Assembly (NCBI GenBank): GCA_040285855.1 | Contig: JAUFOQ010000017.1 | Span: 1,302,001 to 1,366,000 of the forward strand | DNA length: 64,000 bases | Direction: 5' to 3' | Origin: Eukaryota sp. GEM-RC1 | Lineage: Eukaryota | Part shown: positions 13,865 to 62,751 of the stretch, piece after piece | Position numbering within the stretch: position 1 is the first letter of the stretch | How the letters are laid out: every line of letters begins with the position of its first letter | Notes under the pieces: generated by a model | What the model was told of the DNA's origin: nothing | Database searches by the model: none | The model's input: the letters and a program-made list of their open reading frames with translations, nothing else | Position numbers and translations under genes: made by a program

Positions 13865-15735
13865 CTTTTTATGGAACAAAAACACTAAAATAGACACAAA
13901 TACTAGAACTCAATATCATAAAAGCAACAATCATTGCCATTAAAACTCACATCAGCTTTTTCTTCATAAAATATACTGAAGCTAATAGAGCTTTCGAAAT
14001 CATGATAGGAATTGTTTTAAATATTGTAAAACAAATATGATTCAACCAAAATTTGAAATCAAATTTCTTGTTCATTCTTTTTGACCACTTTCTCAAAATC
14101 AGAGAGAAAACAAAGAGCATCTCTACCAAGTCGACCATAAATTGAAATTGCAAAAGAACATAATTTGTACTCAACATGTCTAATATGTTTGAGAGCAGTC
14201 AGTGGTTCATCATATTTGTTTCTCTTGTACTGTTCTGAAGAATTCAGTGGAGAAACTTCATTTTTAGCATCCTTGAATGCACTTTTTTGCAAACATCCAC
14301 AGTAATCACATCAACAACGGTTAGTTCATCATTAACTGATGGAACTATAACATCAGCTCTTCGTTTACCAAAAGTCTTATCAGAATAACTATTTTTTGAA
14401 TTATTGATTTCCAGTGATCTCAACAGTGGCTCAACGAAAGATTCGATTTTGTAGGACTTACACATTGCATGAATTTGATCTCTAACAGCATCATGAATAC
14501 AAGTTCTATAAGTAATGAAACGATTGCAACTCAAAAGGCGAGAAAAAGTAACTAATTTACCACATTTACATTGAAGATCATTGGGTAAATTAGAGGGCCA
14601 CAAGAAACATCGAAGTCTGAATGTTGTAGTCCATTGATGATCATTCAACAACAAACCATAGATCTGAGGAATTTGGTTAATCAAAGCAACTGAAGAACTG
14701 TCCTTTAAATCGATTAAAAATTTGCAAAAGCTGGATTTTTTTCTTTGGCCGAGCCAAGTCGAATTTTAAAATCCAGACATTCAAAATGTTTTAAAAGGTG
14801 TTTTTGGAGTTTCTTAAGAGCAAATTTTAACGAGGTGACACATCGTTCTGGTATTTCACAAATATCTGCTGGAAACAAGTTTGCCAGAGGTCAGGTGAAA
14901 TTAGTGACAATTCTGATCTCAAATTTACCAAGAAAAAACTACTTGTCGAAACAAGAAGATTTTCTTGACTTGGGTACCGTCTACAGAAGTCAAAGACAAA
15001 ATTCTTACCACCACCAATGAAAGCAGATTTGGTCCACCATTTAGACGAAGTAAAACCAATACCACCAAGATGAGGATCTGAGAAGATGTGATTGTTCAAA
15101 GCAGCAGGATCCACTGATAACAAAAATGCAAGAAAGTCAGTACGAATTTTGTTAAAGCTTCTACAGAAGTTATAAATAAGGACAGGGGGGAGAGATCGAA
15201 GCAGATGGGTAACTTTTCCTGAATAACAAATTTTTAGCATAAAGAATTTGAGATGTTTTTCCAATTGTAGTTCCTTAATTTGATCTAATTCTTTTCGCAT
15301 TGAATCCAAATATACATTCAGATCTTTAACAATGTTGTCATGTGAACCAAGATAACAACCTAGAAATCTAAAGCTTGAAGATAAATAGTTCACAAAGGGA
15401 ACCTCTAAAGAATTAACAATTAAAGTTACAGGTACCTTGGCAATCAAAAAACATTTTTGCACATTTAATTGAAGTCCAATAGCATCGTACAAATCAGCAG
15501 CCTGATTCGCAATAATACGAAGAGTTGACATAGGAGCAATAAAAGAAATGTCATCCATATAAGCTACGATTTCTAAGTCGGCATGTTCTTCTTTGAGTTT
15601 TTTCAGGATTGGATGAATAGCCAAACAAAAAAAGAAGGGACCAAGAGGATCTCCTTGTTTAACACCAGAAACAGAATTAAGAACAAATGAATTAAAAACT
15701 AAGTCATAAGAGTGACCATAAAAACAATGAAAAAC
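13865..15735 (-). mobile_element. 5'-truncated RLE-type (CRE-like) non-LTR retrotransposon: RT, zinc knuckle and RLE, frameshifted
   Basis: GVKQGDPLGPFFF and AYMDDI RT motifs, FLGCYLG, LGGIGF thumb, CxC..SC..HDAVRD, RRADVIVP..DVITVD..KRNKY. Confidence 0.92.
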
Positions 15736-16433
15736 GCTGATAATTAGTATGATTAAGCATGTTCAAAAAATCGATTTAGCGACTGAATCGTTTTTGGTCA
15801 AACTGTATAGGTTTTGTCCCAAATCCTTTAAAGATAGCAAACACAATTGATTTTTTCTACAATCTAAGACCAAAAGTCCTAACTGTTTACAGATTGGCCA
15901 CACTGACATTTCAAATTGTGACGAAAATTTTCAGGCAAAATTTATGAACGCAAACGACTGTGATTTAATGGCCAAGTGAAAATAAACAGCACACTTGAGA
16001 GAGTTGAGTAATCAAACATGAATCAGAATCAGAGCTGTTAGATCCATCAAACTAGAAATTTGCAGCAGTCCAACGTAATGATCCCTTCTTTCGAAAATAC
16101 TTGTTAGTTTCCCTTTGTATTTGTTCAGATAGAGTTGAAGATTAGTTAAATCATCGTTTTGGACACATGCTCTGGGGAACATTGCGACCAAACGTAACAA
16201 ATATAATTTGTTCAATGGTTGGTTTAAGTCAAAAGACCTGCGCACGAATAAAGTCCATCACTATGGAGTTGTACTGTTGTAGTAATACCCGACTATTTTG
16301 CATATTTTACAATGTTTTTCATAGTTGTTTGCCCATCGTTATTCAGTCATGAGATTCATGTTCCAACATCGTATTTATACCCTATCCGATAATATTTACA
16401 AATAAAACATGAATTGAGCGTGAAGAGGGAGAG

Positions 16434-16967: not shown

Positions 16968-17776
16968 GTTCGATGTGTGATGAAAGTTTAAATTTATTAG
17001 CTTCATGCACATATGCAGTTCTTTCTTTTAGGACACTGCTAGATCTCTCGTTAACGCTAACTCTAATTCCCATTTCTTAAAGTCTTAGACGGCAATAACT
17101 TCCAAGTTGATGTCCAACAAGGTGGTAAATTTGCCACCCATGGTGTGTACTTCTCTTTGATTGTGCCAAATATCTTCCATCTGCACAAGACCCAGTTATT
17201 GGTTATATTGTTGCTCATCCTGAAAGTTTTAAAGTAGGGACATCAGAATTTGCTGCTTTTCCCTTCTTCGGATCCGAAAGCCACACAAAGAATAACTGAC
17301 CTGGTATTCCCATCAATTCTCCCATGTGATCGTGTGACTTTAGCTGAAAAACACGTGGAGCCGGAACCGTATGTCTTCTGATGGTAAATGAACGGGATTT
17401 GGTCATCTTCATCTTGGGTCAATGTCAGAACTCATTGGAACATGATTTTGGTTGAGGTGGCTTAGGCTGTCTATGGGGTACTTTGGATCAAAGCTGATGA
17501 ATGTGAGCATCAGGGTTTTTGTGCAATATTTTAAAATTTGAAATCAAAGAAGTTGTATAATAGTAAACATCCCCAAGATGTTTTGAAGTGATACAAGCCA
17601 ATGACAATGAGGACGTCGAAAGATATTTTCATTAGATAAATACACATATATATTTGACAGACCGTTAAAGGCACATGTTTGCTAAATAAACAACTTCACT
17701 GATACACTGATATTAGTGACTATCTGATAAGTATTGAAGTTATTGCAATCAATAAGAAAATACAGCTAACCATTTA

Positions 17777-18405
17777 TCGTAGGTGTCCCAATACAAACAA
17801 CTTTATATCTTATTCAAGCAGACACATTTGCTTGCTTGTATTGGGACCTTGCTTGTATTGGGACCCTAGTGTACGATAAAGTGACTATACCTTTGTTTTC
17901 AATATATTACAGGACCACACCCTATTTTGTATTTGTAATGTCAAATGCACATTGTATTGTCACGATTGCAAGATCTTACCAGTTGATTATAACAATACAT
18001 AAATGTGCCACAACGTTTAATAACAGTATTTTAATTTGTTCTACAAATACACAACACTTGTCTGTATAGGAGCAAAGTTCTATTGACAGTGATTCTATTG
18101 CCTATAATTTCATAAATTGAATTTCGATATGCCCTTTTGTCCTTCTGATTTTTAAAATCTCAAACAATACAATAGCACCATCGAGTTCTTCGGGCAAAAA
18201 TACGCAACAATAGTAGGCACCCAAGTGGACACTATGAAGTTCGTCCATAGCTCCATGTGTTGTAAATTCGTTTTAAAACACTTTGTATTGAAGTATAACT
18301 TGGCCAACATCCAGTGTATAGAGAATAATACAAACAAACACTTTTACTTGCTTGTATTGGGGCCTTGTTTGTATTGGAACCTTGCTTGTATTGGGACAAC
18401 TACGA
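17777..18405. mobile_element. Tc1/mariner-type MITE
   Basis: TIRs tcgtaggtgtcccaatacaaaca / tgcttgtattgggacaactacga (2 mismatches), each flanked by TA; internal cttgtattgg(g)acc repeats near both ends. Confidence 0.75.
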
Positions 18406-19571
18406 TATTCTACTGTATTAATTCTTTAAAGCAACTCAAATGATCCCTTTGGATCATTAAATTTGCCTTCATTCTGGTAAGTCATCGTGAGGACCAAACA
18501 AATTCTCAAACTCTGGATTAACAGAAGTGAATAGTTGATTAATTGAATCTAAACTTAGTTTTTTGGTGATGACGAATCCTGAATCTTCAATCAATATTTA
18601 ATTTCAATTTACGGCTGAACAACTTTATCACAACAACTGACAAAATCGATACTACACCAGTATTTTTTGACTGCAGTACTCAAAAGATATTAAATGATCT
18701 ACAATTACTCTTGAATCACTCACAATTGGTCTACCAGAACTATCTCATCTTCTAGTTTACGATTCAAATACTTTCGAAAATTATATAACAGTACAATGAA
18801 AAAAATTGCACGTTGAAGAGTATCATTAAAATTGTACATTGATCACGTCATACTGGTCAAAATTCATACATGAACAATTATGATCACACATCACAATTGT
18901 GATCACAATAATTCGACCATTTCTACACTTTGTGATCACAGTGTGATTTGTGAAGTACAACTATGGTTGAAAGTAATCCGTGAGGATCGAGTGAAAGCAC
19001 TTCATCAGCACTTGTTTTATGTTGATTTGGGATTGTTCTTGAGGAAAAGAATGAAGTCGTCAAGAGAGGAGGATTTAGAGATGATTTGTTTGGGAGGGAG
19101 AGATTGTGATGATTGGTTGAGTGAATGAGAGGGATTGATAGCAGGGATTTTGCGTGGGGGTATAGCAGAAGAGCTTTTCATCTAGAATGAGAAAAAAACG
19201 AAAGAGCATACGGAAGATAAGCGACCATAACGTGTAGAAGATGCTAGAGAACGACCAACAGTAGAAGAAGACTGAAATTGTAAGCGCTGAATCAAGTCAG
19301 ATTCAGATGATTCAGACGCCATATATATAGTAGTTTAAGAACGGACAATTTGGGGATGAAGATTTTTTCATAAAGTGAATTCTTTTGATGCATTGAGTTC
19401 TGATATGGAAGTTGTCAGTTCAGGCGTTCCTTTGTTCTACCTTTGTTGCATGGTTTGTTTACTCACTTTTTGTCATTCAAACACGATCACGTGTTTAAGG
19501 ATATAATATCATAATCATATATATAATTTTATATACTCAGCTATACATGTACTTAAAATTAAATAAAGTAA

Positions 19572-20171
19572 TTAAAGTTTATAATTCCTACGTTTTTTCT
19601 TTACTTGGCTGGCCTTTTTCCCCAATTTTCTTTGGGGCTCTGGCAGTTTCATCTGCTGTTTTTGCCTCCGTTGGAAAATTTGTGTTCTCAACCAAGCAGC
19701 CACCGCATCTGGATTATCAAGCGGATCCAGTTCTGGCGGCATGTTCAGCAACTTCAATTTTGCATCACATTTTTTTACAAGATCATAATAATCCATGATT
19801 GCAAACACCTCAGCTTTGTTGTCAATGGGGTGAAGTTCTGGTGGGATGAGATCACGATGGTCATCAAGGGGATTAGAAATCTCACTAGCTAGACGGTCAT
19901 GTTCACGTTGCAGAACATTGGCTCGAATTCTGAGTGATGATAACTGAGAGTGTACATTGCGAGCTACTTCTCCAAGTTCTTGGTATTCCAAGCCTAATTG
20001 AATTGCTTTAACAGCGTCCTGCTGCAGAGGCCAAGTGACTTTATTGATTTGGTTTAGAAGTTGAAGGAATTCAGGAGAAGATGAATCCGGAAGATTTCCT
20101 GATGGATCGCTCACATTAGAAAGAAGTTCTATAAGTTTGTCGTATTCAGATTCTAAGGACTCGAATGACAT
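19572..20171 (-). CDS. Hypothetical coiled-coil protein (weak resemblance to THOC5 N-terminus)
   Basis: 199-aa ATG-initiated ORF with host-like composition and a basic C-terminus. The family assignment is weak. Confidence 0.6.
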   Translation of the reverse strand: MSFESLESEYDKLIELLSNVSDPSGNLPDSSSPEFLQLLNQINKVTWPLQQDAVKAIQLGLEYQELGEVARNVHSQLSSLRIRANVLQREHDRLASEISNPLDDHRDLIPPELHPIDNKAEVFAIMDYYDLVKKCDAKLKLLNMPPELDPLDNPDAVAAWLRTQIFQRRQKQQMKLPEPQRKLGKKASQVKKKRRNYKL

Positions 20172-20248
20172 TAAAGAAGTGGGTGATTAAGAACTCAAAA
20201 TAAGTGTTTCCACACTCTATATGGAACTCTATAGGTTAGAAGAGCTCC

Positions 20249-20825
20249 CTTTCACCTTTCTATCCCCCAATAGCCATAAGGCTATTAAGAGCATACAAAC
20301 AGGATTGAGTTACTCGCTGTATGTTCTTTTGTCTTTTCTTCCTCTTTCTTTCACCTTTCTATCCCCCAATAGCCATAAGGCTATTAAGAGCATACAAACA
20401 GGATTGAGTTACTCGCTGTATGTTCTTTTGTCTTTTCTTCCTCTTTCTTTCACCTTTCTATCCCCCAATAGCCATAAGGCTATTAAGAGCATACAAACAG
20501 GATTGAGTTACTCGCTGTATGTTCTTTTGTCTTTTCTTCCTCTTTCTTTCACCTTTCTATCCCCCAATAGCCATAAGGCTATTAAGAGCATACAAACAGG
20601 ATTGAGTTACTCGCTGTATGTTCTTTTGTCTTTTCTTCCTCTTTCTTTCACCTTTCTATCCCCCAATAGCCATAAGGCTATTAAGAGCGTACAAACAGGA
20701 TTGAGTTACTCGCTGTATGTTCTTTTGTCTTTTCTTCCTCTTTCTTTCACCTTTCTATCCCCCAATAGCCATAAGGCTATTAAGAGCATACAAACAGGAT
20801 TGAGTTACTCGCTGTATGTTCTTTT
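20249..20825 (+). repeat. 99-bp tandem array (~5.8 copies) of a structured RNA-like motif
   Basis: Units start at 20249, 20348, 20447, 20546, 20645 and 20744. Each has a pyrimidine tract, hairpin aatagcc-ataa-ggctatt, and stem aagagcataca/tgtatgttctt enclosing aacaggattgagttactcgc. Confidence 0.95.
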
Positions 20826-20832
20826 CAAGATT

Positions 20833-20874
20833 GATCTTACGCTTTGTGGAGACATTGAATCTAATCGAGGTCCA
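20833..20874 (+). other. 2A (StopGo) peptide, degenerate
   Basis: DLTLCGDIESNRGP; one substitution (CCA>CGA) away from the D(V/I)ExNPGP consensus. Confidence 0.8.
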
Positions 20875-23756
20875 CGGAACAAGACAAAAAGAAGAATCCG
20901 ACCCAACCAGAAAGCGGGATACCATGCATTTGTATCCATCGACAAGGAAGAACCATACTATTGGATCAAGTATGATGAACCGTTACACTTCCAGTCTCAA
21001 TGGCTTGGGATTTTACAAACTACCACAGCCAGATGTAACACCCATGAAGAAGCTGTACAGTTTGCAAAACAAACTATCAAGACAATGACTGAACACGATC
21101 CTGAAGATCCTGAATTAGAAAGATCCCCACCAGACGACCAGCTGTCTCTGAGTAATTGCTACACTGTTCTCGCCACTGGTATTGATCCTCTTCCCAAATC
21201 AGATAGGTTCATTCAAAGACAGGTTGTTCCATTTTGGTCTGAAGATGAAGAGCAACAATTTTCTTCGTCAACTCAAAAAGAACTACTATTTTTGTTTAAT
21301 TTGAAAGATAAAGTCGAGCCTAATACTTCATCGTTTCTTTTTGGTAAGAAATTTTTCAGAAAAAAACCTCAGACGACAAATCAAACGTCCCAGATCCAAC
21401 GACCTAGAAAAACTCCGGTCAGTAGTCTTTTGTACCACTAATGTTCATGTGGTGGAGTTCCAAAAAACAAGCAATCGAAGATACAGAATCAGCTGAAGAC
21501 AAAGAAATAGCTCAAGATGATTCTAGATTCAAGAATGCCAGATGAAATGAAAATTAATTTCAGAGCAAATTTGAATTTACAAACCAAATATTCGGCTGAC
21601 TGGATTGATTTAATTCTGGACGAAGTAACATCTTCATGCTGTCTCGGATTCAAAAATTTCAGCAAACAAGATCTCTTGATGGTTTATTCTTTACAACAAT
21701 CAGTCGAACAAGAAGTGGGATTTGTGACCAATATTCGAATATTATTAGCTGATAGAACGAAGAATCCCACCAGTAGGCCAAATATTAATGGTTGTAAAAC
21801 ATATTTGAATAGAGGTATTTCTAAGGATCTACCAATGTGTGAAGTCAAAGTTCATCAGGCTTTTCAAGAATTTTTGTCTTATGTTCGACAATGTGAGCAT
21901 GTTGGTGAATCAGATATTTTTATGATTGGATCTCTGGCTGACGTGATGGCTGCAAGTCTCAATGTTCATTTTGCAATAGTCAGTAAATATCATCGACTAT
22001 CAAAGACAACTCCCTGGTCAAAGATGTCTGTAATTACCCAAGACCCTATTTGCCCACTTACTGTACTGTTTGCAGTCAAAATCAGTTCTGGTAGTCACTT
22101 TTTGCGCCAAATTTCTGCCATGGTGGATTTAGAAATTCCTTTACGTGTTCAATACCAATTAGGAATTATTCCTAGAGCACCACAACTACCAAGTTGTTTA
22201 AGTTTTAAAACTGATTCAGAACTCTGTCAAAATTTAAATGACTCTCAAAAAAAGACAATTGAAGAAATTGGAAAATTGCATGTAACCTCACCTGGTCTAT
22301 ATGTCATTCATGGAGCACCTGGTACAGGGAAAACAACGACAATTGTCAAATTGATTATGTCTTTTTGTCTAACAAATGCAAGGTTTGGGTAGCTGCTCCA
22401 TCGAATAATGCAGTTGACGTAATATTAGCCAAGCTAGTTGATGAACAGTCAGTTGATGAACAAAAATTGATGCGAATAAGTTCTCAATTACATCCTTTAC
22501 CAGAAGTTCAACCGTTCTTGTTAAGTACAAAGTTAGAACAAAAACAAGCAAAAGAAGAAGCGAAAAAACAAGATGAACAAGATGCTCAAGATTTATTAGA
22601 TCAACAAGCTGTCAGACTTCCTCCACTTAAACAACCAAGAAGGAATATTAAACATGGTCAGCCACATACCACTACACCTGCTGCTCAAGATGAGGAAGAA
22701 GAAAAGGATGATCTTTCGTGGATTTCTGAAGAATATGATGTTCTCTTCACAACATTAGCAGGAGCGAGCAGTTACAGAAATCAAGGTATTTTTAAACCGC
22801 AACTATTAATTATTGATGAGGCCTGCCAGTCAACTGAGCCTGAACTAGTGGCTCCATTACGAATTTGTAATGAATTTACATCCATTGTAATTGTTGGAGA
22901 TCACAAACAATTACCCCCTGTAGTATTCAGTCAAAACTCAGGGTTGTCCAAGTCTTTGATGGAAAGATTGATTGATCAATCTGATTTGACACATCACTTT
23001 GATAGAGAACGCTACACACTACTGAATCCACAATATCGTCAATTCTCAGAATTGTGGGCATTTTCTAATTCAATGTTTTACAGTGATCAAATTGACATTG
23101 TCGAACCAATCACTGGTGAACAATTGACATGTGCCTAAAGACATTTTGTAAATACATGGGGGTCAATTCAAGATTATTCTGAAGAATTGGCAGGTAGTTT
23201 ATTCAACAAACACGAAGCCATTGCTGTTATTAAAGGAGTTTGTGATTTTTTGAAGGATCACAAAGATGCATTGGAAAAAGTTCTCAAGCGTTCATTTAGT
23301 GTGGCAGTGTTGACACCTTACATGGCACAGGTTGATCAACTCAGACAATTGTTTGACTCTATTGAACCACCTTTAGACAATGTACAAATATCAACAACTG
23401 ACGCATTTCAGGGAAAAGAAGTAGATTTTGTATTTGTCAGTACAGTGAGATCCTATCAAGAAGGCAACATTACTCAAAGTCTAGGTTTTTTGACAGATGA
23501 GCGAAGAATGAATGTTATGCTGACAAGAAGCAGGTTTAGTAATTTTATATATGGGCATGAAAAACTTTTACGAACAAATCTGCTTTGGGAGAGTTTAGTG
23601 GATTACTATTCAGCTTCTACTAACGATTACGAATCTGAATTAGACCAAATTCAACGTCGTCGGCAGACTGCACATGCATCTCAAGTATCAGATGAGATTG
23701 TTGATGTCAATGCTGAAGGTTTAGGGAAGTGTTCCCCAAATTTGGGGAAAATGTAG
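20872..23756 (+). pseudogene. Frameshifted Upf1/DNA2/NAM7-like SF1 helicase (~950 aa reconstructed); possible N-terminal RNase H1-N/Cauli_VI-like domain
   Basis: LNDSQ (Q motif), GAPGTGKT, AAPSNNAVD, IIDEACQ, VGDHKQLPP, SLMERL, QYR, LTPYMAQV, TDAFQGKE, RRMNVMLTRSR across ORFs 21517-22392, 22365-23138 and 23187-23756. YHAFV...CNTHEEAVQF follows the 2A. Confidence 0.88.
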
Positions 23757-23896
23757 CAGATCAGTACAAGTGTAGTTCTTGTTGTGTTTTAATTTTTTGT
23801 TTTATAAATGGATTTAATCTTTGTATTGTTTGTTTGTTTTTGCACTTTCATCGTTTTTTTTCAATGACCTGTACCCTAGATCAAGATTTTAGTGAG

Positions 23897-23973
23897 TGTC
23901 ATTACAAATGTTGTATCTACAAATATTGTCATTACAAATGTTGTATCTACAAATATTGTCATTACAAATGTTG
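23897..23973 (+). repeat. 30-bp tandem repeat (~2.5 copies)
   Basis: tgtcattacaaatgttgtatctacaaatat at 23897 and 23927, partial copy at 23957. Confidence 0.9.
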
Positions 23974-24309
23974 AACAAAATCAACATCTATGTTTTGAAA
24001 ATGTAGCAGTAGTTCTTATGTTTTGTTTTATTTATATGAATGTCATTGCGGTGCTCAACAAAAGTAAATGTAAAGATTTTCAACTATAACTCAGTTCAAA
24101 TGAGAAGAGTTTTGACAGAGTGCATATGATGGTGGAGTTAGCTGTAGTGGTTCGTAACACTGGGAAGAAGCTAAATAAACACAGTGAAAGATCACGATTG
24201 AAAGGATCTTCACCTTTTAAGATCATAGGGAGGTGTGCTCATGAAGAGAAGACCAGTACAACATATGATGAAGATGCCATAATGTCAAGTTGTCAGTGTC
24301 AACATCAGC

Positions 24310-24317
24310 TATAAATA
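24310..24317 (+). promoter_or_regulatory. Candidate TATA box for the Fanzor-polyprotein unit
   Basis: tataaata about 50 nt upstream of the first structured motif copy; weak evidence in AT-rich DNA. Confidence 0.3.
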
Positions 24318-24361
24318 GTGGAAATCTTTTTGACCTGTATCATTTTTGTTCCCTTTGTCGC

Positions 24362-24505
24362 TTCCAAACACTGCAAAGTGTTTCGGGTGATAGTAACAGG
24401 ATTAAGTTACTCGCACTATCACCTTTTTCTTCTTATTTGATGCTTTCCAAACACCACAAGGTGTTTCGGGTGATAGTAACAGGATTAAGTTACTCGCACT
24501 ATCAC
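24362..24505 (+). promoter_or_regulatory. Two tandem copies (83-bp period) of the structured RNA-like motif
   Basis: Hairpins aaacact-gcaa-agtgttt and aaacacc-acaa-ggtgttt; stem gtgatagt/actatcac enclosing aacaggattaagttactcgc. Confidence 0.75.
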
Positions 24506-24556
24506 TCGTCATTTCTCAATAGTCATTTGAACCAACCGTCATCACAGTTTGTTCGT

Positions 24557-24598
24557 GATTTAACCACGGATGGAGACATAGAGTCAAACCCTGGTCCT
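24557..24598 (+). other. 2A (StopGo) peptide, intact consensus
   Basis: DLTTDGDIESNPGP matches D(V/I)ExNPG/P. Confidence 0.93.
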
Positions 24599-25230
24599 TT
24601 TGTCACTGAGGAAGAAATCACCACATTGAAACCCTCCGTATGGCTCGATGATTCTGTTGTTGACTTTTATGGTGAGTACATCACCGAGAATAGTGAGTTA
24701 TGCCAGTTTTTCCGTATCGGGAATCTTCATGCTGCAGTGAGTTATGGCAATTTTGACACATTAGCTCTTGAATTTCTAAATGTTCAGAATTCAATGCGAG
24801 AGACTGGGAAAAGGTTTTTATTTATTCCAATAAACGATGGTGTCTTTCGTGATACAGCAACTCATTGGACTCTACTTGTTTGTGACATTGATAGTACGTC
24901 ATTTTTTTCACTTGATCCAATGTACACTGACAGTTCAACTCAACTTTCATTTGACGTTTTAACTCAAAATGATCAAGTTGTAAGTACATTACAGGAATAT
25001 TTGCGTCATTTTGGAAATTTTTCAAATTTAGGAAAGCTCCCAGTTATTAAACATCAAACTCCCAACGACTGTGGACCATATATCTTAATGTATATGCAAC
25101 GATTTGTTCATTTGGCATCAACATCAGACAATTTCCAGGAAATTTTGTCTCAAGTCCAAGGTTATGTCGATTATGATGCTTTTAACATGAGAAAACAAGT
25201 TCTAAATCTGATAGCAACCACGCATCCTAT
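24596..25230 (+). pseudogene. Ulp1/SENP-like C48 cysteine protease domain 1 of the polyprotein
   Basis: WLDDSVVDFY, FLFIPIND, THWTLL (His), SLDPM (Asp), QTPNDCGPYI (Cys). Confidence 0.88.
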
Positions 25231-25571
25231 TCCTTTTGCTATACTTGCTGTAAGTATTGTACATGAGTACTTTTCAAACAACATTCAAGCACATGTTCAA
25301 GAACACAGTGCCATAGTTCATTCTTCACCTGGTACTTCTGAAATAGCCGAACATCCAACAGCAATTTTATCTCCTGATGAAACTCGACAAGTGCCATTGA
25401 CTATACCCAATCAACTTATGGACTCAAATCTTACAAGGAAAACTCGTCAATCTAGAAAATATCCTCCAAAAAAGAAGAAGTTTTCTCAAAAATATCAAAT
25501 TATACAACATCAACATCGTGGAATTCTAACACAATCTCGTCCTAGACCACTTTTACTAAGATCTGATTAAA

Positions 25572-26210
25572 TTGACACACTGGAAACCCAATGTACTGCT
25601 TCATGATTCTGTCATTGACTTTTTTGGTCAGTACATTGCTCAAAAGAGTAATCGATGTGAATTCTTTGAAGTAGCGAACATTCAAGATGCAATCAATCTT
25701 TCACAATATAACATAATGTTTGAACAATTTAGAGAAGTTCAATTATCAATGGAAAAGTCCAGTAAAAGACACACTAAAAAGTGTAAGAAACGTTTCTTGT
25801 TTATTCCAATAAATGACGGTCTCTTTGGTACAACAGCCACTCACTGGTCACTGTTAATCTGTGATATTGAAAACAAACAGTACTTCTCTATTGACTCAAT
25901 GTGTACAGAAGATCAACAATCTCAGTTTTCTAACACTTTATCACGTATTGACAATATCATTTCACAATTACAGCAATTCCTGTTTGATATGGCAAATTTC
26001 AGCTATATAGCTAGAGTACCAGTTCAACAAGTCCAAACTCTTAATGACTGTGGTCCATTTATTCTAATGTATATGAATAAATTTGTCGAGTGTGAATCAA
26101 CATCAACAAATCTTTTCGAAATTCTGTCTAAAGTCTCTAATTGTGTTGTTTATAATGCCTTAGAAATGAGAAAACAAATATTGTCTCAAATCGTTACTAC
26201 TCACCCTGAT
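25572..26210 (+). pseudogene. Ulp1/SENP-like C48 cysteine protease domain 2 (internal duplication)
   Basis: LHDSVIDFF, FLFIPIND, THWSLL, SIDSM, QTLNDCGPFI; colinear paralogue of domain 1. Confidence 0.88.
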
Positions 26211-26599
26211 GAAGATCACCCTGATGAATACCGACAATATGTATGTACTCATGCCCAAGGTATTTTAAATGAGTTTTATTCTGATGAGATTGAATCACCT
26301 GTTAATCAACCTGTACAGTGTCAATCTGAAAGTTTAACTCCTGAAACAATGGTAGATGATAGTAGTTACAAGGAAACGGTATCAAAGCTCACTTATCAAA
26401 ACTTTCTCAAAAGTTTACCTGGCAATTTGTCTAATCGGAAAAGAAGCGTCTTTTGAAGTTAAAAATGATTGAACAAGCGCTGGAAGAAGCTGAAGATTTA
26501 TTTCAAGAAAGTTATCATAACTTTAGTCGTCCAGAGTTGACAGATCTTCCAGAAATACATTTACCAACTCCAAAAATAAATGTTGCTGCTTGTGAGAAA

Positions 26600-29775: not shown

Positions 29776-29945
29776 TCATAGTCATAGCCTTTATTTACTA
29801 CAGTGAATCTGTAGCATTATTGAATCTTCATACATTAAAGCCTCAGTACTTCCAACCTTTTCAAGAACTGATGTAGCAAAAGGAATGAGGATTCACATTG
29901 TAGTAAATGATTTACATTATAAGGCATAATTCTACCTCTCTGGAT
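29776..29945 (+). ncRNA. Putative Fanzor omegaRNA (scaffold ~29787-29925, followed by flank-derived guide)
   Basis: Nested stems directly after the Fanzor stop: gcctt/aaggc; atttactacagtgaatc (29793-29809) / gattcac-at-tgtagtaaat (29890-29908); inner cctca/tgagg and cctttt/aaaagg. Confidence 0.65.
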
Positions 29946-35609: not shown

Positions 35610-36130
35610 ATTGTACCTGTCAACATTCAATTGGTTAATTAAGTGGCAGTACTTTGTATTTTTCCTTTTTCAGCCACAAGAGCAGAAAAATCATCATCAA
35701 ATTTTTGGAAATTGATCTTGAATAACAAGGATCAACAAGAGGGAAATCCATGATAATTTCCTGACAAGACAACCAAGGACCAATCAAATCACCTCGACTT
35801 CTAACAACTTTTGGCTGATCAGAAAGATTAGCAAGTAAGGGTTTAATTTTCCCATGAAAACCATTAGCTTTAAACATATCCAAACATGTATCCCGGATAC
35901 TGTTGTGGATTATTGATCGAAAATGAATAAATTGAAGACAGTTAACTAAATGATGAAAATTTGAAGCCTTTGATCGACCACAAAGACATGAAGAAAGTTT
36001 CAAAAGACCTGAAGGCCATAAACCAAACCTAAGTCTCATGTTTATAAGCCATTCATGATCCTTAAGATTAAAACAAAATCTTCTTGGCAAATGAGAAACA
36101 AATGAAGACGCAGAGCTTGAAGAAATACCA
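35610..36130 (-). mobile_element. 3' fragment of RLE-type LINE (third subfamily)
   Basis: MRLRFGL..CLCG..HHLVNC..HNSIRD..RSRGDLI; near-identical to 57180-57670. Confidence 0.85.
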
Positions 36131-36789
36131 TTTAAAATTAGTCTATCATCAGTATATTGTTTCAATGTAATCAACAAACTGTGTTACAAAACCAGGAAGA
36201 GGCTATTCATGTATTGGGTTGACTATGGACGAGAACATACATATGGATTATTCCAAGACCATACCAGATATATATTTTCTCTGCAATACAAGTTATGGGT
36301 GGTGTCAGAAATTATTATGAAGTGACACGCTGAACAGGAAGGAAAATTTTAGTGTGTGTTGTTCAGTTCCTATTTTTCCTAATATACAACCATTCAAAGA
36401 AACTTAGACGCAAAATTTGACTCTATCAGTGCTATGCACTTGTGTGGAGATTGATAACTGCTTGCTGATGTTGTTTCTGACTAATCACTCGTTGGGTGAG
36501 GGTTATGAACGGAACCGCTGTTCTCATGTTTCTTGATTAATACCTCAATAACGATTGGAACAACTCTATCTTAACAATGGTTCTTTTTTTTTCCTTTAGA
36601 GGTTTCATCTGACATGTCATTTACTACGTCTTCTTTGCCGTTTACTGAGTCTGAATTTTTTTGCGAATGATTAAACCATCAGTCTGGAAGAATTTCATAC
36701 CTGTAATTCAACCATAAATAACTCTAAAGTGGTTGACTCCCAACTTAATTTTTGTGTAATTGGGTACTGTTTATAAATGTCAAGACCAA

Positions 36790-40010: not shown

Positions 40011-40952
40011 TCAGCAACTTTGGTATTCATGAATATTTATAAATAAAAAGACATTCAAGCTAGTGTCACCATTATTGTCGGAATACAATTGTTGGCGGAA
40101 TATAACTCTAAGTTTGATTTGATCAGCAACCTTGTTATAATAATCACAGGCTCGAGCGGAAGCATCATGAGATTGTTTCACGTCAAATTGATGTAAAGTC
40201 ATATTCCTCATAACAGTAATAAAGTGTATAATACATCCCAAACTTCACTCGTATAACACTTTCGTGAGGATGAGGTGTTGATGTGGGAGGTCAAGAATTT
40301 CGTTAGGGAGGTCACCAGTTGCTAATAAAGGGATCTGCTCTAGTATACGGATAGAATCTGCAACTAGCGCCAGGATTTGATCGTTGTCAGGTATACAGTT
40401 TCGAATACAAGAAAGAAGACTATCAGAGGAAATGATATGCCATATAGCTTGCAGATGATGATGACGAAATTTGAGGTCACTTATATGTAAACGTGACATA
40501 ATACTGGTTGCTTCCAGATATCAGGACTGGTTTTTGCCTCAAACGAATCGCCAAACACCAGGGATGCACTATCAGCAGCGACTTCGTCTCCGGCCTTATA
40601 TGCAATTCTGTATACTGTTTCTAATGTAAGTCACATAAGAACAAACGTTCATCAGCCAGTTCTATAGCCAAGTACACAGTTTCATTGGTAAGCAAAGAGG
40701 AAACGTATGCAGCCAACTGAAATAGACGTCTCCGTTGACGGGAAGCGTTGGTTGCAACACGTACGTGTTCCGGTTCATGAGACATTTTTTTAAGATTCTT
40801 CCTCTGAAATTGTTTGATCAACAAGTGTTTGGAGTACTCGAAAATCACGTCATCATCTGCCCACTGGCCAGGATTGAGGTATTCTAGATAGTTTTAGACA
40901 ATGGTCCTGGATTTGATTCGACATCTCCATCCATGGTGAGCTCTCTTTGAAA
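40011..40952 (-). pseudogene. Degraded 2A-led ORF with Ulp1-like start
   Basis: FQRELTMDGDVESNPGP (40902-40952), then after a lesion PGQWADDDVIFEYSKHL; 40076-40200 is near-identical in reverse complement to 6812-6937. Confidence 0.65.
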
Positions 40953-43900
40953 CGGTGTAGAAAATCAATGAAGGCAACTTTTTACATCATTACCTTTTCA
41001 AATAAGGATGCTTTCGGAAAGGTTTGTTATTGAGGTTTGGAGAGAAAACTCGTAGAAATACAGTCTTTGCCAGTCATTAGTCCAATATCCGTATAGATTA
41101 CACATAACAGATATCTTAATACAATGTGATTCAAATAAATATCAGTTTTTACTTTTTTTAGAAACATAGCGAATGCCTAACTTGTTGAGTAGATAATGTT
41201 CTTCAGAATTAAAATTCAATTTTGCGTTTTTCCAATCAACGTGTGTGTAACACATGTTGAATACGAATTATGCCCTTTGCTGATTCAATCTATGGCCATT
41301 TAAAAACAGTGTACTAAATCCTGTCAATGACTCTTCTTTGGTAATTTTAAAAATTTTTTAATGGTTCTGGTCAGTCTTGAAACTCATTACTCAGAACCCC
41401 TAATTTTATCACATCAGATTTGATTCTCAATCATATTGAATTATTATAAGTTTCAATATTAATCAAAACTTTGGTGATTTAAGAATAATTTGACTCATGA
41501 ATTTTTCAGTCAAACTTTCGACAGCTCTTGAAAACTCCATTGTATTAGAAATCTTACCACAATAGGCCAACTCTACCAACGTAAATGTAAAACATACAAT
41601 TAAAAGGGTAAATTAAACAATTACCAATTCATGAGAAACTGATCTCGCATATGTCTAACGAATTCCTAACGTACTATTGAATATTGTAACAATATGAAAG
41701 TATCTGTGACACATAATCATCAAAATTGTACGTCATTGGCATTTCAGAAATGGCACACGTCTTGAATTACTTCTTCAAGGATCGCACAGATAGATAAGAA
41801 CGAAGACATACGCTTGATTCCACAATCCGTATTGATGGGGAAAGCGCTTTAGATGTACTTGGTTTATTGTAAAAAGAATAAAGAAAACTACAGAGGAGAT
41901 TTGTCATGACACTTTGACACGTGTAACAACAACAGAAGTGAAGAACATTGAAGATAAGTATGTGTCATGTAGGTAATTTTAGGAGGAATTGCGGTAGAAC
42001 AGAAATGACAGGGCCAATCGATTGGCGGTAACATAAATACTACCTTGTTTGACAATGTATCGCATAGTATTGGTAAGTTTTGAAGTGGACAATAAGATCA
42101 TTTCGTACTCATGTTGAGTCACTGTTGAACAGCTCTTTTCCTTAGGTTCTGGAACTTCGCGATCGAGAGATCTCACTTCTATGTCTCTTTCTTTGAAATC
42201 GGGTCTTAAATTGGAAAGCCTTGAAACTGGTGAACGATATGGCTTGGCGACTTTCGAAGAAGTCTTGTATTTCGTGCTCAGCGGACTTTCATTAAAGTGA
42301 CGTTGGCAAATGGATTCATTCAAAAATTTGCCTCTAATAAGGTCTTGTCATTTCCGAAAAAATGATTTCTTATTGAAAGCGAATCGTCATTTTTCATGAC
42401 AATTTTAAAGGCGTCTAGATTTTGTAGGATAATTTTGTATAACATAATCTGAAGTTAATTCCTTGAGAATGAGAATGGCTCCGTGGCCTTTCATGGCAGT
42501 GATTACCGTTGTTTCTATGTATAAAATGGGAGTAATTGATGATTGATGATTGTCTCTTGATACTCTTGGTCGAAGTCTTAAGAGTTTACTGATGGTGTAT
42601 GTAACTTGGTCACAAAGTTTCTGACCAAACCAATTGCATCAAATTAAGCAGATGAGTTCCAATTAACAGATTTTATCTAAGCCAATACCACAGTCTCCTA
42701 ATGAATTATTCCTAAATTTTTACCTGGCTCCCACGTACAAATTGTATAAAAAACATGAGCACAACAGCCCAGCAGACAGACAGATAAACTAAATTTTCAA
42801 TAAACGTAATGAACAGTACGGGTGCACCATCTCTACATTAGGCCCATTATCAGTAGTTATATTCATAACTTTAGTGGTTAACTCATGTTGAGAAATAACA
42901 ACCATAAAATATTTTAAATATTCTGCTAATCATCTACATTATGTGGATTATGTAGCGTTTCTAAGGGACGAAAATCTAGTGAATATTAAAATATTATCAC
43001 GAATAAGTAACTTACACGGCAATTCAGACATTCTACAAGTGATTGCATCTTTAGTTTGGTTGATAAAAATGAGTCCTTGATACGGATCAAAGAGAAACGG
43101 GAATAGCTGCAATTTCGCCAATCGAGTACGGCGGGCCATGTGTCACTATAATGTGGGCAATTGCTTTGTCCACTCATCAATCTGGGTTGTATTTCACATC
43201 GTACCAATCATTTTTCTGAATTAGTAATGATTGATTCGGAAATCTACTAACTAATTTAGCAAATACAAATACAATATTTTTGCCATTCTTTTGGATTATT
43301 TAATAACTAGGACTTGAAAGCTAGAGCATCCAGCTGGAAATGACACGTGATTGTTTTAGTACATCCTTGTCGCAACCAATAGTGTGGTGGCGGGTCATAA
43401 GTTAATAGCCAATGCTTGGATGATGGTGCAGCCGCCTTACACCAATAGTTGCAGGAAACATTAGCCCATGTGTATAAAACACAAATGGATTATCCCTGTG
43501 GTATATGCAGAAGGTATAACTATTACAACTTCTCAATTTACCCACCTCGGTCTCATCTTGCACTTTGGGGTCATCTTCAAAATCATGTACGAAATTCTAT
43601 TACGAAACTTCTTGGTAGCTTTGAGATTGTTGGCGTTACGGAATCTTTCATCAGAAAGCTTGTTTTACAATTTGAGGTTGAATATATTATGAAATTTCAG
43701 GACAAACCATTGGGAGCATCAATGGACTAATCGAGTTCAAATTATCCAAAATGGGTTTTTATCATAATGCCGTTTATAAATTTAATTTACTATGAAAACT
43801 AAAATTTGATATCATTAAACAAGACCGATCACTCCCAAATCTTCTAAAGTGTTCATAACAGGACCTCACAGCTACTAGTATTGAGGTCTTAATAGAGTGG

Positions 43901-49299: not shown

Positions 49300-50790
49300 A
49301 AAAAATACATAATAAAAGCTATGAAACACTAGACACCGACAATTCCTGGTCAATAGTACCACAGTTTTTATACAACTTTGTGAAAATTGATTTAAAGAAC
49401 TTAGGCACCGAACGGAACACAGAAAAAATCAAACGGTTATGCCAAATTGATAAGTTAAATCTCTTATTCTGAGACTTACACATAGATCCAAATTCAGTTA
49501 AAAACTTGGAAGCCATTTCACCAATACTACTGAAAATAGAAATAGCAAATGGAACAAATACAAATTTTGAATATAAATTTTGATTGAGTTTAGCAACATC
49601 TTTGGAATCCAAATCAATTTTACGTTTTTCATCTGTTTCTAGGTGATTAAAACCTTTTGAATTCAAGCCATTAACATAAGTTTGAGCACATGGATCTACT
49701 GTTGTAACATCAAGGATAATTTGACTAGAATCAACAAAAGGACCATGTAAGTCACCTCGACGAGAATTATTAATTAAATCAAGACCCAACTTACTACATA
49801 AAGGTTCAACTTTGGCATGAAATCTATGAGCCTTAAACATTTCAAATGTAACATCTCTTACAGCATTATGAAGAACTGAGCGAAATTGAATAAATTTGGG
49901 GCAATTAATTACATGTCTAAAAGTTGCAATGCGACGATGACTACAAATGCACTCAGAACTGTCCAACAATTCTGCAGGAAACAAACCTAAACGCAATCGC
50001 ATATTTAATTTCCAAGCCTCATCAGACAAATGCAAACCAAAACGACGTGGTTGTTGAGTGATCAAACAAGTTGAATTCTTAATATCATTTAAGAAAGCAG
50101 CAAAAACGGGATTATTAATTTTAGTAATACTAAAACGATTTTCAAAATCCAGGTTTTCAAATGCCTTCAAATGCTTATTCTGAAGTTTGACCACACATAA
50201 AGGGAGAGACAATGGAGATTTTTCTGGAATACTGGGTAAATGAGAAGGAAAACAGCTATTCCAAATATCCAAATCCAAATCGTCAATAACTGAGACTAAC
50301 GAAACTAACCTAGGAGTAGTTTAAATGAGATTTTCATTAAACAAAAAGCCGTATCTGGATTTAAATTCAAATAGAAAATTCTTCATTCCACCAATAAACG
50401 CACATTTGGTTAAGTATGAAGCTCGTGAAAAACCCACACCGCCAACATTAGCTGATGAAAACGCGTGATAAGGCAATTTCGAGTCATTAACCTCTACAAG
50501 ATCGCTTAAGAACTTAGTTCTCAAAGAGTTAAATTTTCTGGCTAAATCAATAGTAACTTCAGGATTGATTGAGCGCAAAAGTGATTGATTTTGGACGCAA
50601 AACAAGTCGTCAAAAGGGAAAAAGAAATATGCTTACCAATTTTTAGCTCACCAATCTGTTTAAGCTTTACAGAAATTTTTTCCAATGAATTATCCACCTT
50701 CAAACGTATTTGATCGCCATTACCAATGAAAGTACCCAAAAACTTAATAGCATCGACACTATAATTGGAAAACGGAATAGTATGATTTCT
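49300..50790 (-). mobile_element. 5'-truncated RLE-type LINE (fourth subfamily)
   Basis: KFLGTFIG, GGVGF, MRLRLGL, CICSH..HVINC..HNAVRD, RRGDLH..DVTTVD, PFAISIF. Confidence 0.88.
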
Positions 50791-52357
50791 CAGCAATGTC
50801 TTGGAGTCTTCTCAACACTTTGGAGGCTGTTTTTCGGAACTTCAACACGTGTTGGTTATTTTGGTATACCTTCATCCAACATGCATCTACGTTAGTAACT
50901 TCTCTTATTGATTAAACTTTATTGAATACAGACAATACCACTAATATCCAAAGACTCTGGGTAAATGCACCACATTAGGCACCACATATTCAATTGATTT
51001 TGTAAAAATAATAGCTGAAAGACAATAACTAAAGTATCTGGAATATGATAATTCTGTCCTTCACCAAACAACTTACCTACAGTCGAATCATGGTATATGT
51101 GCATAAAACGAAACAAAGCAAATGGTAGTGATTTACAAAACACTATTACAGGACTTTTGTTGTAACGTTCTTGTAAATCTTCATCTCCACAAGAACGTGA
51201 ACAGTAGTCAGCTAACTGACAATTTGGGATCTTCAAGCATTGTTGACAACAAAAGGGTGGTAAAGTGCACTACCGATCTTCCTCGGAAAATCTTCCCATT
51301 TATCAGTAATTATCATTCCACTTTTGGGAGTTACGAATCAATACTCGCTACCGTGTTCATTTCGATTGAGGAACAAAGGACAAAAATTCCTGTTTTAATT
51401 ATTGGTATTCTTTTGTGTGTTGTTTAGATCTCCGTCGCAGCTTTGTGCTGTCATTTTCCCGATCTCACTTCGTTTTTTTATGTTCTCTATTATCTGCAAT
51501 ATTGTGTTCTCCATTACATATTTTATGTTAGCTGACGCTTTCTTTCACTTCAAGATGCCACATTTTTTCTTTTTTTATTTCTCCTTTTTTGTATTTGCAC
51601 AAATTTACTCCAGTTTGGTTGGACTGTTATCAAACAAGTGCCCCCGTATTTTGGGATAAAATACTGGCAAAGTACTCTCATGTTTCAGATATTTCTCTTC
51701 TATCTCCAATGTTGGCTTACGGTTACCGCATGGAATGCCACATATTTCACGATTGAGATTGAACCCAACACTGCCAAGTTCTTTTTGATTGTTTTAAGTT
51801 TACCGTTCTTTTGCCTAATTACTTCTTGTAATTGTTCGTTTAACTGTGTAACTATTCGTAAAAGGAGATTCCACAGATTTTTCTTGCAATTTGTATGGTT
51901 GACGGCCTTTGAAAATCCTTTGTACTTGAGTATTGACCATGGTATGTCGTTTACATTGTGTGTTAGGGCAATTAATATATCGTAGATGAACTGACACCAT
52001 TGGGTCGAATGGGAAGTTTGTTTTGTGACTCTCATGAACATTTTCATTTTGTTTTTAATTGTTTTGTTGGAAAACAAGTGATTCCGGGATTGGTCCTATT
52101 ATGTGCATTTGATACACAATTGTTCAACTTCAAGTTTCATACAGACAGTGTAAATCAAGTTGCTACTACCGAGTATCACAAAAATGGTCTACTTGCCGCC
52201 ATAAAAACTTATAAGAAAAGCTTCAAAATTGGTCTTAATTAATTAAATTTAAACACATTGAGACAGTCCATCATTAATACTTCATCACTCACTCAACTAC
52301 TTGCTGTGATTTCCAAAATTTTCTCACATTATTGGAAATTTTCAAAAGATAAGGAAA

Positions 52358-54986: not shown

Positions 54987-56138
54987 CATACTTGTGGATC
55001 ACAAACACATGTGATTACATTGTGATTGTGATCACATGTGATCACACTGGCCTTTTATTTGTGATCACATCACTTGTGATTCTAATGTGATCCATACTGA
55101 AGTGACGTCATTAATATAATACATGTATGTGATAAACCTAGACCAGTTTTAATTGTTCAACAACAATCTACAGTATAGAGCACAAGTTTAGAGTCTAATC
55201 TGGTGCTCGAAAACTACATTTACCCTTTCCGAACAATGGCATCACTTCCTTTTCTCCAATCCGATTGTAACAAGGACAATCCGCTTTACCAGCTCGTGAA
55301 AGTTAATGAAAACACATCAGGTAAGGAAGACTTTCAATGTCAAGGGTGCTATAAGATATCAAACAATACTATATCATACAATAGATTTTACCACAAAACT
55401 TACTACTTCTGAAGTCATTGATTTCGCTATCCATCAATGGTGGTACTCTGTTGGTAGACAGCTTTATCCACAGTTGAGTCAATTAGCTCAAAGAATAACA
55501 GGCCATACTGGTTCAGCATCTACAACAGAAAGGAATTGGTCTTCATTTGACTTCCAGGTGTCCAAAAGAAGGTTGAAAGTGACCAACGATGATTTGGATG
55601 ACATGATGATTATTCATTTCAATACTCCTCTTCTAAAACAAGAACCCAAAAATTTGAATCTCGGTATTCTCAACTAAATACTTGAGACCAAATCTAGAGT
55701 GGGGGATGTTCTTTTGGATGTGGAAATATGGGTCTTTAGTGTTGTTGGCAGAAGAAGAACAACCGGCAGATACAATTCGATGTTGTAGCAAATGTTGATT
55801 TGAGAGATGTTTTTGACGACATCACAGTTGACGATGAGGATGATAAAGAGGATATTGAAGAAGCTTTTGTGATCGAAGGAGCAGATATGGAGGAGCACAT
55901 TGATGTAGATTGGTCTCAGGTCAGTGAAATAGATCGTGTTCGCAAAAGAAAGCTGTAGGGTTATGTAAGTTCGATATGTATAAATATTATAATACATTAT
56001 TATCAACTTGATTTTTCCCAATAAACAGTATTTGTGATCATTATTTGTGATTGTGATCACATGTGATCGTGTGATGTGGTTGTGATTGTGGTTGTGATTG
56101 TGATCACACTGACAAAACGAGTGTGATCAACAAGTATG
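54987..56138 (+). mobile_element. Internally deleted hAT element
   Basis: TIRs catacttgtggatcaca / tgtgatcaacaagtatg (1 mismatch); gtgatcac subterminal repeats; BED-like start (FQCQGC) joined to dimerisation domain WW..YPQLSQLA..SASTTERNWSSF. Confidence 0.9.
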
Positions 56139-56146
56139 ATCAGAAC

Positions 56147-56733
56147 ACTAAAGGCTCGAAAACAGGAAATTCCATGCAGACTCATATCAACCCTGATTTT
56201 ATTGAATTTGTTTCCTCTCTTTCAGATTCATTCAAAATTCCAAAACGAACCACGATGAGAATTGATATTTTGAATGTTTATGAGTTATTTAAAGGATACT
56301 TGATAGATAAATTCAAAAATGTGTGCAATTCTTCTAAAGTTTCTATTACGATTGATGGGTGGACATCAAATACCAACACACATTTTATTGGGATAACAGT
56401 TCACTGTACTGAAGACTGGAATTTAAACACTTACGTCCTCGGTTTTAAGCATTTAAAAGAAAACCACTCTGCCATCAACATTGCCGATGCTGTGGAAGAA
56501 ATTATCACTGAATTTGGTTTGAAAGAAAATGTGTTCTGTTTAACTACTGATAATGAAAACACAATGACCAGTGTTAAAACTTTACTGCAACAGAGAGGTA
56601 TTATTGACTTTCATAGAGGTTGTGCTCCTCATACTCTAAATTTAATTGTTAAAGCAGGATTGAAGGTTTTAAATTCAAGAAATGACTCAATTCCAAAAAT
56701 TCGGACTTTTGCGAAGAAGCTTCACACCTATAC
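56147..56733 (+). pseudogene. hAT transposase catalytic-core fragment
   Basis: NPDFIEFV..IPKRTT, ITIDGWTS, FIGITVH, HSAINIA, TTDNENTM, CAPHTLNLIVK. Confidence 0.9.
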
Positions 56734-56759
56734 ATTGTACCTGTCAACATTCAATTGGT

Positions 56760-57165
56760 ACTGAATTCTTCAGAACAATACAAGAGAAACAAATATGATG
56801 AACCACTGACTGCTCTCAAACATATTAGATATGTTGAGTACAAATTATGTCCTTTTGCAATTTCAATTTATGGTCGACTTGGTAGAGATGCTCTTTGTTT
56901 TCTCTTTGTTTTCTCTCTGATTTTGAGAAATGGTTAAAAAAGATTGAACAAGAAATTTGATTTCAAATTTTGGTTGAATCGTATTGTTTTTACAATATTT
57001 AAAACAATTCCTATCATGATTTCAAAAGCTCTATTAGCTCTCAGTGTTTTTTATGAAGAAAAAGCGGATGTGAGTTTTAATGGCAATGATTGTTGCTTTA
57101 ATGATATTGAGTTCTAGTATTTGTGTTTATTCTAGTGTTTTTATTCCATAAAAGACTAAAATCAA
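56760..57165 (+). mobile_element. 5'-truncated LINE with 14-bp TSD
   Basis: Matches the 13865-14245 family; TSD aacattcaattggt at 56746-56759 and 57166-57179. Confidence 0.88.
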
Positions 57166-57179
57166 AACATTCAATTGGT

Positions 57180-57750
57180 TAATTAAATGACAATACTTTC
57201 TATTTTTCCTTTTTCCTTTTTCAGCCACTTCAAGAGCAGAAAAATTTTGGAAATTGATCTTGAATTACAAGGATCAACAGTCGTGAAAACCATGATAATT
57301 TCTGACAAGCTAACCAATGACCAATCAAATCACCACGACTTCTATCAACTTTTGGCTGATCAGAAAGATTAGCAAGTAAAGGTTCAATTTTTCCATGAAA
57401 GACATTAGCCTTAAACATATCCAAACATGTACCCCGGATACTGTTGTGAATAATTGATCGAAAATGAATAGATTGATGACAGTTAACTAAATGATGAAAA
57501 TTTGAAGCCTTTGAACGACCACAAAGACATGGAGAATGCTTCAAAAGACCTGAAGGCCATAAACCTAATCTAAGTCTCATGTTTATAAGCCATTCATGAT
57601 CCTTAAGATTAAAACAAAATTTTCTTGGCAAACGAGAAACAAATGAAGACGCAGCGCTTGAAGAATTATCATTCAAAAATGCACAAAAAGCGGGACTCTT
57701 AGTCTTATCCAAGCTAATACGGTTTTTAAAGTCCAAGCTTTCGTGAAACA
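57180..57750 (-). mobile_element. 3' fragment of RLE-type LINE (third subfamily)
   Basis: Near-identical to 35635-36130. Confidence 0.85.
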
Positions 57751-57788
57751 AAACAAACTTCTTATTTGATGAAAATCATATTATATCA

Positions 57789-58466: not shown

Positions 58467-58514
58467 CACGACATATTAATAATAAATAGACCAAGAAATA
58501 AATTTATCGATGCT

Positions 58515-59570: not shown

Positions 59571-59585
59571 AAAATAAAATCATTT

Positions 59586-60245: not shown

Positions 60246-60325
60246 TTTTCAAAAATATAATCATTTTTATACTCTAATAATCTTTGCTCTATTTCTGTAA
60301 ACATCATTAATTCCCCTCGATCCAA

Positions 60326-61862: not shown

Positions 61863-61869
61863 TCATCAA

Positions 61870-62745: not shown

Positions 62746-62751
62746 AGAAGT

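Follow-up and report, generated by a model that had tools for sequence, protein, structure and literature searches.

Locus and module copies

The window, i.e. the whole stretch of DNA that was analysed, comprises 64,000 nt of Eukaryota sp. GEM-RC1 (contig JAUFOQ010000017.1, positions 1,302,001 to 1,366,000), and all coordinates are counted from its first letter. On its + strand, a 60-nt structured module occurs in two arrays, each located in the leader of an open reading frame (ORF) headed by a 2A-like motif. One ORF encodes a helicase; the other encodes two Ulp1 domains, an exonuclease and Fanzor1. Modules, start codons and 2A motifs are as follows:

20221-20223, + strand: in-frame ATG, starting a 217-aa leader which ends at the 2A Gly; the array is open in the 2A frame
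20249-20825, + strand: tandem array of variant 1 with a 99-nt period, 5.8 units, 99% identical (Tandem Repeats Finder)
Hairpin starts 20269, 20368, 20467, 20566, 20665 and 20764, + strand: six 60-nt modules of variant 1, joined by pyrimidine linkers of 38-39 nt
20845-20874, + strand: 2A-like motif GDIESNRGP, off consensus (NRGP not NPGP), 16 codons past the last module
24366-24425, + strand: variant 2 module, copy a, 7/7 and 10/11 pairs
24440, + strand: ATG, 9 nt 5' of the copy b hairpin
24449-24508, + strand: variant 2 module, copy b, in the 2A frame, 18/18 pairs
24569-24598, + strand: 2A motif, match to the consensus GD(V/I)ExNPGP
40899-40961 (region 40245-40961), - strand: third 2A motif, consensus match, ahead of a decayed Ulp1-like start

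All eight copies in the window (six at the 99-nt period, two at the 83-nt period) share one gap-free geometry, namely CC, a 7-bp hairpin with a 4-nt loop and an abutting 11-bp stem closing 20 nt. The hairpin loops read ATAA, GCAA or ACAA and the pyrimidine tracts consist of 80-92% C+T. The first-pass annotation, made from the letters of the window, had described the tract, the CC, the hairpin and about six copies at 20249-20825 in the same way; its long stem of 8-11 bp is corrected, since both variants have 11 bp, of which 10 pair in the copy at 24366. Allowing up to 3 mismatches, the 20-mer closed by this stem was found in eight exact occurrences, compared to 0.01 expected. A sequence-blind scan for the geometry on both strands returned 27 sites, namely the eight copies, with 0-1 mismatches, and 19 others with 2-3. 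The 99-nt array contains a single variant, A>G at 20689, by which a G-U pair arises; the 83-nt copies differ by a T-A to C-G pair, both as annotated. Ahead of the 83-nt pair, the spacer contains a 30-nt tandem repeat (23897-23973).

Covariation and strand

Variants 1 and 2 had been taken for modules with wholly exchanged stems. Since they align without gaps, they are homologous. Variant 1 and copy b of variant 2 have 23 differences, of which 21 fall in the 36 paired positions, one in the 20-nt loop and one in the tetraloop (Fisher p 6e-5). In ten pairs both sides are altered, in one pair a single side, and none is broken. Of 200000 trials with random changes at the same sites, 22 preserved every one of the 18 pairs (chance about 1e-4). 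In a five-row alignment, 98.9% of the cells pair, compared to 30-50% with slid partners. The covariation is not an R-scape result, because only two lineages underlie it.

On the + strand, every copy contains 1-2 G-U pairs and no A-C pairs. The pair probability of the variant 1 long stem, calculated in the whole array, is 0.22-0.41 on the + strand and 0.00-0.08 on the minus strand. The module is a real structured, covarying motif, and its action at the RNA level is well supported.

Third variant and copies read from proteins

Copies outside the window were read via predicted proteins. A 2A-like motif was present in 11 of 75 collected proteins: two are the window's own, eight are other GEM-RC1 proteins and one is P0067. 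The eight other GEM-RC1 proteins are 2A-Ulp1 proteins, and every one (8/8) has a 20-residue leader segment encodable by the module fold in the same codon register. Control windows reached 17 pairs in 6 of 6023 cases. The copies outside the arrays are:

P0004 and P0009: variant 2, leader fold compatible with 18/18 pairs
P0007, P0008, P0010, P0017 and P0018: variant 3, 17/18 pairs
P0003: altered variant 2, 16/18 pairs
19422-19505, + strand: variant 3 DNA remnant, comprising the 3' arm of one module, the linker, a perfect 7-bp hairpin and the start of the next 5' arm

The variant 3 proteins were obtained through Ulp1 similarity and, being close paralogues, the five do not count as independent events. 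Their leader peptide is unrelated to that of variants 1 and 2, yet the fold is kept. The remnant matches the variant 3 peptide at 89%, and for a covariance model built from variants 1 and 2 alone it was the single new match below E 0.3 (E 0.003). The variant 3 loop differs at many of its 20 positions; an inner helix (4-17, 5-16, 7-14) is possible in all variants. Because variant 3 departs from them, the 20-mer, the RYAA loop and the CC are not invariant, and the near invariance ascribed to the 20-mer does not hold. A pseudoknot between CC and GG (TC-GA in the remnant) is suggestive; it has just 2 bp, which are apparently too distant inside one copy. The paired changes and the leader-compatible folds support the original proposal of a covarying RNA structure tied to 2A-led ORFs.

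Leaders and reading frame

Three 2A-like motifs lie in the window. The consensus core GD(V/I)ExNPGP is present at 24569-24598, at 40899-40961 and in nine relatives, and absent at 20845-20874. In every case observed (both arrays and the GEM-RC1 proteins), the module nearest to 2A is in the 2A frame. The 99-nt unit is free of stops solely in this frame (chance 0.20 for a given frame). Copy a is out of frame with 2A because its own register ends in a stop. The 83-nt period breaks the frame as annotated, but in both arrays the copy next to 2A shares its frame, and from the ATG at 20221 onwards the 99-nt array is open in that frame. In the proteins, the module periods are 33, 35, 31 and 30 codons, which are biased to multiples of three because only in-frame copies enter predicted proteins.

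The activity of 2A depends on the upstream context and the motif by itself is insufficient (PMC3708506, in part); P2A tolerated removal of as many as 9 of 26 N-terminal residues (bioRxiv 2026.09.24.754024, in part). From this need for upstream context and the 16-codon gap between the last variant 1 module and the skip site, we infer that ribosomes usually translate across one or more modules. The open frame and the upstream AUGs indicate that translation of the leader probably runs through the array. An N-terminus fixed by 2A, as suggested in the first-pass annotation, would fit such open, in-frame leaders.

ORFs of the putative mobile element

Both 2A-led ORFs are putative parts of one Fanzor-carrying mobile element. 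The ORFs near the modules are:

19572-20171, - strand: divergent 199-aa ORF between remnant and array, one other recorded copy (P0030)
20875-23756, + strand: broken ORF in four pieces with a C-terminal SF1 helicase of the Upf1/DNA2 type (AAA_11, AAA_12)
24599-26456, + strand: two Ulp1 (Peptidase_C48) domains, interrupted by a frameshift here and uninterrupted in P0018
26435-29775, + strand: low-complexity linker, polB-type 3'-5' exonuclease and Fanzor1 with stops/frameshifts, continuous in P0037 and P0067

The module precedes two unrelated ORFs (helicase; Ulp1-Fanzor) and sits at no detectable element end. Terminal repeats were not found at the element or near the modules, and Pfam detected no transposase, DDE or HUH domain in the element ORFs. 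The named relatives originate from Eukaryota sp. GEM-RC1, TZLM3-RCL and TZLM1-RC, in which the element is multicopy. These organisms are described as skoliomonad metamonads (PMC11316075, in part).

For the helicase ORF no long close relative was found. A perfect 18-nt palindrome is located at its stop (23732-23749). The region ahead of the helicase (21511-22250, + strand) has no Pfam match; it may resemble an OTU-like protease.

Judged from relatives, Ulp1-Ulp1-exonuclease-Fanzor1 forms a single protein. Both Ulp1 domains are continuous in P0018, as are exonuclease and Fanzor in P0037, and the order in P0067 is leader-2A-Ulp1-exonuclease-Fanzor. The AlphaFold model of P0067 was not used, as it is unreliable over residues 1-500. 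The exonuclease is of the DEDDy/polB type, has kept its acidic motifs and lies ahead of Fanzor1 in the window, P0037, P0064, P0065 and P0067. In some copies, Fanzor1-exonuclease stands behind 2A-Ulp1 or a DEAH helicase (P0064).

The end of the ORF on the Fanzor side is Cas12f/TnpB-like according to Pfam, and the relatives' profile matches Fanzor1 structures (SpuFz1, E 6e-71). RuvC-I Asp and RuvC-II Glu are present. RuvC-III Asp is replaced by Asn (NRN) in the window, in all skoliomonad relatives including this motif, in P0046 and in P0054, compared to NRD in SpuFz1 and PpFz1; hence the D-E-D triad is not intact in the window Fanzor1. These residues point to what is possibly a clade of RNA-guided effectors with impaired nuclease. 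In Fanzor systems, the omega-RNA lies at the 3' end of the ORF. The candidate region just past the Fanzor stop (29780-29920, + strand) contains a small hairpin and a predicted 10-bp stem (~29820-29900), with a z of -0.57, which is no better than shuffles.

Other features of the window

14244-15762, 35635-36183, 49319-50811, 57230-57775 and 61826-62763: pieces of decayed non-long-terminal-repeat (non-LTR) retrotransposons, 89-96% identity among repeats
14830-15762: RVT_1
17775-17865 and 18328-18407: 17-nt direct repeats and a 26-nt inverted pair (17775-17800, 18382-18407), like a miniature inverted-repeat transposable element of 630 nt
55300-56764, + strand: remnant of a DUF659 (hAT-like) transposase, accompanied by short palindromic repeats; others like them near 18900 (18860-18960)
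57747-61862: AT-rich (25-31% GC) with dense ORFs, mostly without Pfam match, among them an isochorismatase and a Skp1-like piece; may be of viral origin or acquired laterally

Comparison with known RNA families

The search of Rfam proposed with the first-pass annotation gave no family match: none of the Rfam 15 covariance models came near its gathering threshold, the best hit had E 0.2 (a miRNA model on the minus strand) and none lay over the 83-nt pair. The cores of the hammerhead, twister, pistol and hairpin ribozymes, searched as sequence patterns, did not match on either strand, and the Rfam models were silent. For ribozymes of the hepatitis delta virus (HDV) type, the nested double pseudoknot P1-P2-P3-L3-P1.1-P4 with the catalytic C in J4/2 was used as criterion. 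A loose descriptor (background of ~10 hits/kb) gave + strand hits in each array, none with common elements across both, and none on the minus strand. The first-pass annotation had likewise seen no match to the hammerhead, HDV, twister, pistol or hatchet cores. Pairing between loop and flank as in an intergenic region (IGR)-type pseudoknot was not common to all copies beyond trivial purine-pyrimidine matches.

Likeness to the selenocysteine insertion sequence (SECIS), the iron-responsive element (IRE) and attC was rejected on inspection as the cores are missing. The barley yellow dwarf virus-like translation element (BTE) and the Giardia processing motif were rejected as their patterns gave no match. 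Two exact metagenome matches to the 20-mer and 53 viral-contig matches to a 16-mer are ascribed to chance; by eye, their flanks contain no enclosing stems. L001 and L002, to which the covariance model aligned in the loop only, were also taken as chance. Hairpin-plus-loop patterns had no match in either viral contigs or prokaryote genomes, and three viral Fanzor loci lack the module.

The module is not described in the literature found on 2A with Fanzor, Fanzor with Ulp1 and helicase, or 2A with tandem internal ribosome entry sites (IRES), nor in that on 2A-like sequences with ribozyme and initiation in non-LTR elements. The same holds for Fanzor-exonuclease fusions, where the entries concerned engineering work and reviews, and for 2A in DNA transposons, in both cases among the literature matches listed. 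A term search of the main text of PMC3627910, PMC10711439 and PMC10530073 gave no natural protease/exonuclease fusion; the supplements may bear on this.

Proposed function and alternatives

The annotated functions, i.e. IRES, ribozyme and protein-binding site, are not separable by this sequence analysis. Tentatively, we propose that the module acts as a cis-acting translation-initiation element (IRES-like or a cap-independent enhancer) within the leaders of 2A-led ORFs, where 2A would remove the leader peptide. Ribosomes or an initiation factor would be recruited by each module together with its pyrimidine tract. Ribosomes starting at an upstream AUG or at any copy would then continue in a single frame across the copies that follow, and 2A would free a disposable leader peptide, such that the enzyme starts at a fixed Pro. 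Due to this release, copy number and sequence of the leader would be free to vary with the protein unaltered.

Several points weigh against this proposal, which is drawn from sequence and predicted fold. Ordinary initiation could suffice, because in-frame AUGs precede variants 1-3. A length of 60 nt is small for an IRES, and Rfam gave no IRES match. The covariation comes from two DNA lineages, and variant 3 is represented by peptides and one DNA remnant, whose two arms, derived from neighbouring copies, pair imperfectly. The folding model of variant 2 has no strand preference. The module had been placed upstream of both 2A motifs. Indeed two arrays precede 2As, but the first of these reads NRGP, and upstream of the third 2A, a heavily decayed copy, neither covariance model nor geometry scan found a module. 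P0067, from another species, has no in-frame module; its best site reaches 16/18 pairs and is not repeated, in a leader of 163 residues with a short duplication within, for which only the 2A frame is visible from the protein. The 83-nt period in the window and the first copy of P0003 are out of frame, the periods in predicted proteins carry the bias given above, and introns set by the gene callers may be invented. Since the locus is decayed, the six near-identical copies may represent a neutral recent expansion.

The module could also be a new small self-cleaving ribozyme or a nuclease-processing site, which would excise the message of each ORF from a longer transcript, the role that L1TcRz has upstream of the 2A in L1Tc. 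Its size, the variable stems round a conserved loop, the tandem copies and the L1Tc precedent would fit. We consider this unlikely, as neither a hammerhead, twister, pistol or hairpin core nor an HDV-like fold common to both variants was found (core patterns, loose descriptor), the variant 3 loop differs as described, and cutting in every copy would make the open frame through the array needless. An operator-like hairpin bound by an element or host protein, e.g. the helicase, might serve autoregulation, RNA stability or the assembly of a ribonucleoprotein in cis, with tandem copies providing avidity. Fixed helix lengths with few conserved loop bases and the presence of one module ahead of different element ORFs, with an SF1 helicase encoded adjacent, are consistent with such a role. 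It appears improbable, since the near-identical Ulp1 genes of one organism follow three different loop variants, which a single sequence-specific protein must all tolerate, and the binding partner is putative.

At the DNA level, the arrays could act as internal promoter monomers, as in mouse L1, or as single-stranded DNA hairpins for a transposase. The amplification within a 5' leader, the divergent ORF beginning 78 nt upstream of the array and the similar folding of variant 2 on both strands would agree with this, but the stems keep pairing rather than sequence, all G-U-type pairs are on one strand, the codon register with 2A is kept and no terminal repeats are nearby, which makes such a function very unlikely. 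Conservation of the leader peptide, or neutral slippage repeats, is largely refuted and hardly probable: in the 2A frame, TGLSYS is shared by the peptides of variants 1 and 2, which differ there by one synonymous change, but the unrelated variant 3 peptide goes along with a kept fold, and ten pairs are compensatory.

A more far-reaching reading, which we regard as rather doubtful, is that stackable RNA devices of 60 nt form a new class, with the module as its first member. Such a mini-IRES or new self-cleaving ribozyme would be multiplied by a DNA-type element to tune 2A-released enzymes, including a nuclease-impaired Fanzor fused to SUMO protease and exonuclease. In eukaryotes, new small RNA folds whose covariation is real are seldom found, and such folds are cheap to test. 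If the module initiates translation, it would be a compact, copy-number-tunable element from a lineage beside Giardia, in which initiation occurs without scanning; if it cleaves, it would represent a new ribozyme class.

Comparison with known systems

SUMO-protease cargo in a mobile element is known from Ginger1, Mutator and Helitron elements with Ulp1/OTU (PMC2836005, in part), whereas the ORFs examined here contain no DDE or HUH domain (Pfam). The cargo resembles the Fanzor1 proteins SpuFz1, PpFz1 and GtFz1 in the profile match of the relatives, RuvC-I Asp and RuvC-II Glu; in contrast, Fanzor forms the rear part of a fusion with 2A, Ulp1 and a polB-type exonuclease, has RuvC-III Asn, and the module lies 5' of the ORF. 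The cited literature places 2A in RNA viruses and retroelements; 2A recoding would now also be placed in a Fanzor-type element.

In L1Tc, a structured 5' RNA is followed by an in-frame 2A (PMC5814959; for 2A also PMC3708506; both in part). Pr77 of L1Tc/ingi, which is an HDV-like ribozyme and promoter, is similar in being a small structured 5' RNA of a protist element with a 2A before the enzymes. The module differs in having no HDV topology, in its tandem copies and in its position in an open frame, and the accompanying ORFs specify helicase, Ulp1, exonuclease and Fanzor, but neither a reverse transcriptase nor an APE domain.

Giardiavirus, whose host lacks ribosome scanning, employs an IRES (PMC8230311, PMC3066225; both in part). 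This IRES and the dicistrovirus IGR IRES are likewise structured RNAs by an ORF start, in or near metamonads, and the mature protein begins at Pro (PMC8230311, in part). The Giardiavirus IRES has about 500 nt, contains pseudoknots and is single-copy, whereas the module has no conserved pseudoknot. The module is apparently uncatalogued and so far confined to one protist lineage. By analogy, the arrangement, a member of neither system, would in its working be most like L1Tc or the Giardiavirus IRES.

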